From the NCBI RefSeq assembly GCF_004010195.1, contig NC_057712.1:42533820-42597819 (forward strand): DNA of 64,000 nucleotides, given 5' to 3'. The notes under the pieces were generated by a model. The model did not search any database. It saw nothing but the letters and a program-made list of their open reading frames with translations, and was not told where the DNA came from. The translations under genes and the position numbers were made by a program. How positions within the stretch are numbered: position 1 is the stretch's first letter; each line of letters opens with the position of its first letter. Shown here one piece after another: positions 6,415-62,242 of this stretch. The DNA comes from Chiloscyllium plagiosum. Taxonomy: Eukaryota.

Positions 6415-6608
6415 CTTAGGAGGTGTACTTGTAGTTACTGGTGGAACTGAAATACTCTGACTGGCACTGGAGGTTGACCTGTTTGGCGAAGCGGCCCGTG
6501 ATGATGGCCGTGACCTACGACCCCGTGATCGGAAGGCAGCCACAGACTGACCGGTGGTTTCAGGAAGCATGAATTTTTCACGCAGTTCAACATTTGTTCT
6601 GCCCTTTG
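6415..6608 (-). CDS. DST: DST exon (194 nt): (A)[16 protein letters not shown]...[17 protein letters not shown]...TSTPPK
   Basis: ctgcag|CA ... AAG|gtaatg; phase 1/0; basic Ser-rich microtubule-binding tail. Confidence 0.95.
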
Positions 6609-7129
6609 CTGCAGAGAGGAATAAAACAATAGTTCAAATTCTAATCACTGGTGTTGACATGATCCAGCACCAAACTTGCAATAACAAGGTGAAGTGTGGA
6701 GAGAAAATAAAAGAGTACAGGAGGACTAAAAGGTGGTAACAGAACGATGAAACAACACTAAAATCTGAATTAATAGCCTATCCATACCAGCAACAGAACT
6801 TGCAACAGCAGCACTCAACATTTGGGCTTGTGTATGTATGGAGCATGACATGAATTAGCCCAGCAAAATTCAGAAAACTTAAATGGAAATAAAAAGAAAA
6901 GTTCTGATCTTATTAAATGTTTCAGTTCAGATTCACACTGTGAGCTACGCAAGAGTTTGAACTCCACTAACATCATGCAGTCAGTTTAAGAAAGCCCAGG
7001 GACCCATGTAAGCAAACCCAACTCCAAAAACTTGTGCAGAAGCTCAAAACAGCACATCACTTTCAGGCAGAACAGATATGTACATTCCACTTAGGAGGAT
7101 GCTAAATATCAGACAAGGTGACCACTTAC

Positions 7130-7144
7130 TTGCAGTGAGTATTA
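7130..7144 (-). CDS. DST: Candidate 15-nt DST microexon: (V)ILTA(T)
   Basis: Strong acceptor gacttttttcttttacccgcag|, consensus donor AA|gtaagt, length divisible by 3, open in the phase-1 frame; no recalled protein match. Confidence 0.55.
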
Positions 7145-7358
7145 CTGCGGGTAAAAGAAAAAAGTCATATAAGCAACTTCACATGCATTTCAAAATGGCC
7201 GATCATTCTGTATTTGGTTAAAAAAACTAAAAGCGCATTGGATTACAGTTCTCTTTATAAAAAAAACATGAAAAGCCTGCTGTCAGCTGCCATGTGGGTT
7301 AAGCCATACAGAATAGGAAAGCACACAGTGGAAAGAAAAGAGACAGAGGATTGCCAAC

Positions 7359-62113: not shown

Positions 62114-62242
62114 CAGATGAACGTTAAGCTGCTCCCTGGCAGTTTCTGGCAAGCCTCCAACAGGTTTTGATGCCGACAGCTGACGGTCAATGTCTACCAG
62201 CCAGCGCTGCATATTTTCAATCTCGCTCTGGAAACCTTGAGC
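62114..62242 (-). CDS. DST: DST exon (129 nt): [15 protein letters not shown]...[15 protein letters not shown]
   Basis: atag|GCT ... CTG|gtacgt, 43 codons, GGLPETA spectrin motif. Confidence 0.95.

Follow-up and report, generated by a model that had tools for sequence, protein, structure and literature searches.

Neural microexons form a size class of 3–27 nt. In the targets of SRRM3/4 described in the available parts of Bonnal et al. (10.1101/2024.09.17.613571), a UGC lies between the branch point and the AG in 74–79%, and the pyrimidine tract and the branch point are found far from the AG, in a weak 3′ context. Section 10 of the same source, as excerpted, indicates that the SRRM4 response does not strictly need the UGC. 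In zebrafish, deletions of single microexons mostly had little effect, according to the abstract of PMC12626420.

Microtubule binding by the spectraplakins is carried mainly by the GAR and GSR modules, as stated in the excerpted part of a review (PMC8012552). In the mouse, two cassettes, alpha and beta, are spliced within the C-tail region of Dst/Macf1, and in the passages available from that work all of the variants bundle microtubules and bind EB1/EB3, with no difference among them in either property (Poliakova et al., PMC4171495). Inside the GAR domain itself lies an 18-nt microexon encoding FFLGNQ, which supplementary file 12 of PMC12626420 lists for macf1a/Macf1. Here, we examine a 64,000-nt stretch of the genome of the shark Chiloscyllium plagiosum (referred to as the window), which holds the 3′ part of DST and in which a 15-nt microexon had been proposed to follow the GAR domain.

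A probable 15-nt exon in the intron after the GAR domain

The exons of the window were mapped with the help of dystonin proteins from Callorhinchus and other sources, and the 21 DST exons from position 62242 onward, when spliced together, give 2,952 nt that are free of stop codons. All coordinates below are window positions on the minus strand. The last GAR-domain exon (9561–9444) ends with the residues DPCR, its end being the point up to which the chains of the solved MACF1 GAR structures (5x57_A and 5ve9_C) can be matched, while the constitutive exon at 6608–6415 was placed by mapping and frame as the start of the basic GSR-repeat tail. Between the two is a 69-nt cassette exon of phase 1/1 (7427–7359; VHHHGSK...) that is present or absent across models, and which probably corresponds to the exon that Poliakova et al. 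(2014) call alpha, a naming drawn from the text excerpts of PMC4171495. The FFLGNQ microexon was mapped to 9967–9950 and served as an internal positive control; it is skipped in 10 of 96 junction-spanning chondrichthyan models and has no TGC within its upstream 40 nt. The large DST introns (e.g., 32131–29469, 26452–23283, 21778–20342 and 41192–39460) hold several decayed ORF fragments that resemble reverse transcriptase and endonuclease, which we take to be LINE-type.

The 15-nt candidate occupies 7144–7130, within the 750-nt intron between the 69-nt cassette and the constitutive exon, and a check of the sequence found every element attributed to it in the preliminary description in its place. 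In the direction of DST transcription, these elements are a TGCATG at 7187–7182 (−42 relative to the exon and 172 nt 3′ of the 69-nt cassette), a TGC at 7175–7173 (−31 to −29), a pyrimidine tract at 7164–7148 that abuts the CAG of the 3′ splice site (7164–7145), the exon, and a GTAAGT at the 5′ splice site (7129–7124). Two candidate branch-point adenosines, placed by eye at −26 and −21, fall within 7175–7165 together with the TGC; the AG-free zone of the acceptor is 30 nt, and a second TGCATG lies at 6979–6974, approximately 150 nt 3′ of the exon. At 15 nt, the exon falls in the 3–30 nt size range, is flanked by AG and GT, and preserves the frame. Translation of the spliced DST exons with the candidate included bore out its phase (1/1), its lack of stop codons in the DST frame and the peptide change originally given. 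The frame is kept both with and without the 69-nt cassette, for a net gain of five residues: the junction Ala is replaced by Val-Ile-Leu-Thr-Ala-Thr, which creates SPI-VILTAT-KGRTN when the 69-nt cassette is included and DPCR-VILTAT-KGRTN when it is not.

The strength of the splice sites was scored with matrices trained on the DST sites of the window itself (22 acceptors and 22 donors). The microexon acceptor, at 10.1 bits, exceeds all 22 leave-one-out scores of the true DST acceptors, and 15 of its 16 positions from −20 to −5 are pyrimidines, compared with 8–14 in the true acceptors. The donor matches the U1 consensus at 8 of 9 positions, where 21 true donors match at 5–8. With 8.2 bits added for the donor, the combined score of 18.3 bits is the highest of any AG-(3 to 30 nt)-GT unit in the 54,539 intronic bases of the window, the next reaching 17.1 bits. 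Chance was modeled with 40 third-order Markov replicates of the window introns, which held on average 1.15 sites with a combined score at least that of the microexon, 0.47 such sites with a length divisible by three, and 0.10 sites of such length at which both scores were at least those of the microexon. By its splice signals alone, the microexon is within chance expectation, and because motifs of this strength are reached by chance in the window introns, its status as an exon needs support from other species. The second-best unit (53647–53630), an 18-nt in-frame look-alike that lies in an intron of the spectrin repeats and is flanked by good splice sites, was found in 0 of 82 matched chondrichthyan models and is probably a pseudo-exon.

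Distribution of the insert among vertebrates

Chondrichthyan proteins were gathered through a full-length protein search (the best 120 of 2,874 matches) and from clusters with up to 15 members listed each, which gave 99 proteins from 22 species, 96 of them spanning the junction. Among the models listed, the insert is present in 18 of the 96 spanning DST models, from seven of the 22 species. The peptide reads VILTAT in five models of Hemiscyllium ocellatum (e.g., XP_060708162.1), eight of Rhinoraja longicauda (e.g., XP_078255159.1) and one each of Chiloscyllium punctatum (isoform X2, XP_072414563.1), Stegostoma tigrinum (P0227), Scyliorhinus canicula (XP_038656559.1) and Mobula birostris (XP_072106803.1), and VIPTAT in Callorhinchus milii (P0210). 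Sharks and batoids therefore share one peptide, from which the holocephalan Callorhinchus departs by a single substitution. The insert follows the 69-nt cassette in 16 of the 18 models and DPCR directly in the other two, so that both of the upstream junctions proposed for it are represented in chondrichthyan models. Models with and without the insert occur side by side in H. ocellatum, C. punctatum, S. canicula, R. longicauda, M. birostris and C. milii. Isoform models from the NCBI eukaryotic pipeline are usually based on aligned transcripts, and those that bear the insert presumably rest on spliced transcripts.

The exon had been called unannotated, which is wrong for these seven species, whose NCBI dystonin models already contain the peptide; the term holds for the three C. 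plagiosum models listed (X4, X5 and X6, with 15 of 23 cluster members listed), none of which has the insert. The insert is likewise missing from the listed models of 15 of the 22 species, C. plagiosum included, these lists being partial and not a proof of absence. The coding sequence of the window matches C. plagiosum at 859 of 859 residues, C. punctatum at 858 and H. ocellatum at 855, and C. plagiosum itself probably splices the microexon as well. Failure of the AG/GT or the frame to persist in related sharks had been named, together with a lack of junction reads, as grounds for abandoning the exon, and shark models were found to carry the same peptide in frame; conservation of the AG and GT across chondrichthyans would follow from these proteins, as opposed to orthologous chondrichthyan DNA. 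As a control, 13 other exon junctions, all upstream, showed no inserted peptides in chondrichthyan models. Proteins of up to 2,000 residues (188 proteins, 101 of them spanning the junction, and 26 further hits) did not contain the insert. In one UniRef model of Callorhinchus (P0107), DPCR is followed by a 17-residue insert that is unique among the models and resembles intron read-through.

Outside the chondrichthyans, 424 spectraplakin-type proteins were fetched, including many isoform models from zebrafish, medaka, tilapia, fugu and stickleback, some DST proteins of mammals, birds, reptiles and amphibians, and MACF1 and invertebrate homologues. The insert was found in 0 of the 279 that span the junction, with no coelacanth, lungfish or gar sequence recognized among them. 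The earlier impression that the peptide is foreign to human DST agrees with its absence from all of the mammalian and other bony-vertebrate DST and MACF1 proteins in this set. Since none of these proteins was recognized as coming from coelacanth, lungfish or gar, a gain in chondrichthyans and a loss in bony vertebrates both fit this distribution.

A metagenome scan gave 30 loci, of which two are vertebrate DST-like (L012 and L017, the latter stopping 25 nt into the intron), and a scan with the shark exon returned 602 pattern hits with 0 confirmed. The first intron bases after the 69-nt cassette (GTTGGCAA) are identical in the shark and both of these loci. The proposed check of orthologous introns was run on one locus, the bird-like L012, whose intron of ∼770 nt has no comparable exon, its best unit scoring 11.6 bits vs. 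18.3 in the shark. An alignment of the two introns produced short matches near the microexon, but with a gap of 11 nt and without an AG/GT pair, and was judged to be chance. In the zebrafish microexon supplements, no dst row was found (12 of 13 files of PMC12626420 and 12 files of PMC12626424), nor was a description of the microexon found in the literature searched, which contained few subscription papers. PMC11285346 and PMC4174434 deal with DST events at other exons, and the RBFOX-target Macf1 microexon of PMC13067610 lies upstream of the EF hands, as read by eye from the primers.

Because the same peptide occurs in seven chondrichthyan species and in 0 of 279 other proteins, the microexon is very likely genuine, with the automated gene models of these species pointing to a real cassette exon conserved across cartilaginous fishes. 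The same protein comparisons suggest that it is likely both lineage-restricted and optional.

Predicted effect, regulation and alternative explanations

As the solved MACF1 GAR chains match only up to DPCR, the insert lies just outside the GAR fold, in keeping with its original placement immediately after the domain. It comes before KGRTNxELREKF, a conserved motif, and before the basic tail, and in the predicted structure it sits at the start of a low-confidence region (residues 81–126, pLDDT < 50). Two structure predictions were of low confidence overall, with mean pLDDT of 59.0 and 49.4, and are uninformative on the effect of the insert. We hold with considerable confidence that this is a conserved optional cassette microexon of chondrichthyan DST, which would lengthen the GAR-to-tail linker by five residues and likely fine-tune microtubule binding in some tissues. 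In the mechanism we propose, the strong splice sites would allow the 15 nt to be optionally included in the DST frame, inclusion would extend the linker that joins the GAR domain to the basic C-terminal tail, and the resulting small change in spacing, or a hydrophobic contact, may modulate microtubule binding without switching it. A modulating rather than a switching effect is likeliest given that the mouse variants all bundle microtubules and bind EB1/EB3 in the passages available (PMC4171495). The microexon borders the GAR domain, where missense changes of MACF1 cause lissencephaly, according to the excerpted review (PMC8012552). It thereby offers a natural variant of the GAR-to-tail linker that is amenable to testing.

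The two TGCATG sites, which we take to be RBFOX-type motifs, flank the microexon, but they are near background, with two GCATG sites in the 750-nt host intron against 0.97 per kb of intron. The bird-like L012 intron, which lacks the microexon, also has two GCATG sites, and of the 21 read-through ORFs that were fetched by querying with the cassette, 17 have GCATG-compatible peptides; because of these two observations, the sites may serve the upstream 69-nt cassette. In our judgement, inclusion of the microexon is probably regulated by tissue, with nerve or muscle as the likeliest sites. Participation of an RBFOX-type factor in its splicing is plausible, at somewhat less than an even chance, and would weigh more than control by SRRM3/4.

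The latter alternative, a canonical SRRM3/4-driven neural microexon whose inclusion in neurons is triggered by a UGC close to the 3′ splice site, had been suggested by the preliminary description. The size of 15 nt, the frame, the strong donor and the cytoskeletal host gene all suit it, and according to the available text of 10.1101/2024.09.17.613571 an SRRM4 response does not strictly depend on a UGC. The FFLGNQ microexon is present in 18 of 18 insert models, a weak point in its favor, as it is also present in 68 of 78 models without the insert. The layout around the acceptor, however, is a poor match: the single TGC within 40 nt of the microexon is, at −31, 5′ of both by-eye branch points, so that the stretch from the likely branch point to the AG holds no UGC, and the tract abuts the AG of what is the strongest 3′ splice site in the gene, with its 30-nt AG-free zone, whereas the targets described in the same excerpts combine a weak 3′ context with a tract set at a distance. 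Of the proposed signature, the strong 5′ splice site stands, and with the UGC 5′ of the likely branch points we grade the signature as weak. Because the arrangement of the UGC and the pyrimidine tract does not fit the described targets, SRRM3/4 control is not favored, and we consider it possible but rather doubtful.

An exon that is real and conserved could also be near-neutral, i.e., a tolerated cassette included at low levels, whose sequence is constrained as an RNA element, for instance one that regulates the 69-nt exon. The 15 species with no insert in their listed models would be expected of such an exon, and the recurrence of GCATG in the bird-like intron without the exon and among the read-through ORFs is consistent with a regulatory role for the intron, as is the similarity of the C-tail variants in the assays excerpted from PMC4171495 with a lack of effect. 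This explanation accounts poorly for an in-frame peptide that has changed once across sharks, batoids and the chimaera and that is used in two exon contexts, and we think it unlikely. It is far less probable still that the exon is a pseudo-exon that arose by chance, or an artefact of annotation carried from genome to genome. About 0.5–1 sites of such strength arise per window by chance, but the insert is found in the separately annotated genomes of seven species, with Callorhinchus having its own residue, and the other look-alikes in the window never occur in models. A conserved, optional microexon of chondrichthyan DST therefore remains our preferred reading.

Comparison with optional exons of other spectraplakin tails

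The intron that follows the GAR domain also hosts optional sequence in other lineages. Among the 279 non-chondrichthyan proteins, 72 (e.g., P0311, P0253 and P0270), all of those with a name being teleost DST, lengthen the 69-nt cassette by 14–17 residues (GWQ...), apparently by using a 5′ splice site downstream of the equivalent of the 7359 donor, and an extension of this type is in no chondrichthyan model. At the position paralogous to the microexon (window 7358–6609), an 11-residue cassette (VTVTPGYFCCR-like) is found in P0085 (Acipenser), P0480 and P0481, which fall in the MACF1 clade with support of 100/99 in a 17-row tree; this cassette occurs with or without the upstream one. In two invertebrate-like spectraplakins (P0512 and P0514), DPCR and KGRTN are likewise separated by additional peptides, some of which may be read-through artefacts; these suggest that optional exons occur in this intron outside the vertebrates as well. 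A 12-nt neural microexon of zebrafish macf1a (DreEX0044250) is listed with no human orthologue (supplementary file 6 of PMC12626424).

These observations invite the speculation, to which we assign a low probability, that the post-GAR intron is an ancient tuning slot filled differently in each lineage: by the 15-nt microexon in chondrichthyan DST, by a longer cassette in teleost DST and by the 11-residue cassette in ray-finned MACF1. The microexon and the MACF1 cassette might then share a pre-duplication exon that was lost from bony-vertebrate DST, and could set a neuron- or muscle-specific microtubule affinity. A common origin of these two exons is hinted at by position and phase, and we likewise regard it as improbable. 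The microexon is kept in holocephalans, sharks and batoids and unseen in bony vertebrates, and microexon catalogues have been built on human, mouse and zebrafish. The practical gain is small, being an addition to the C. plagiosum gene model if the exon is truly missing there, and the microexon adds one more case of lineage-specific splicing in spectraplakin tails.

Compared with the mouse Dst/Macf1 C-tail cassettes alpha and beta, the shark microexon, 214 nt 3′ of the probable exon alpha, would be a third and much shorter cassette that is undescribed in the available passages of PMC4171495 and is in no bony-vertebrate protein examined. The NCBI chondrichthyan dystonin models (e.g., XP_072414563.1, XP_060708162.1 and XP_038656559.1) have the same insert at the same position, in automated form and without description. 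The microexon resembles the SRRM3/4 neural microexons, as presented in the excerpts of 10.1101/2024.09.17.613571, in its small size, preserved frame, strong 5′ site and cytoskeletal target, and is unlike them in having no UGC between the branch point and the AG, no distant tract and no counterpart in bony vertebrates. Both the shark microexon and the 18-nt FFLGNQ microexon are in frame and belong to the same gene family; FFLGNQ, one exon upstream, is of phase 0, inside the GAR fold and common to cartilaginous and bony vertebrates, whereas the shark microexon is of phase 1, outside the fold and found in chondrichthyans only.
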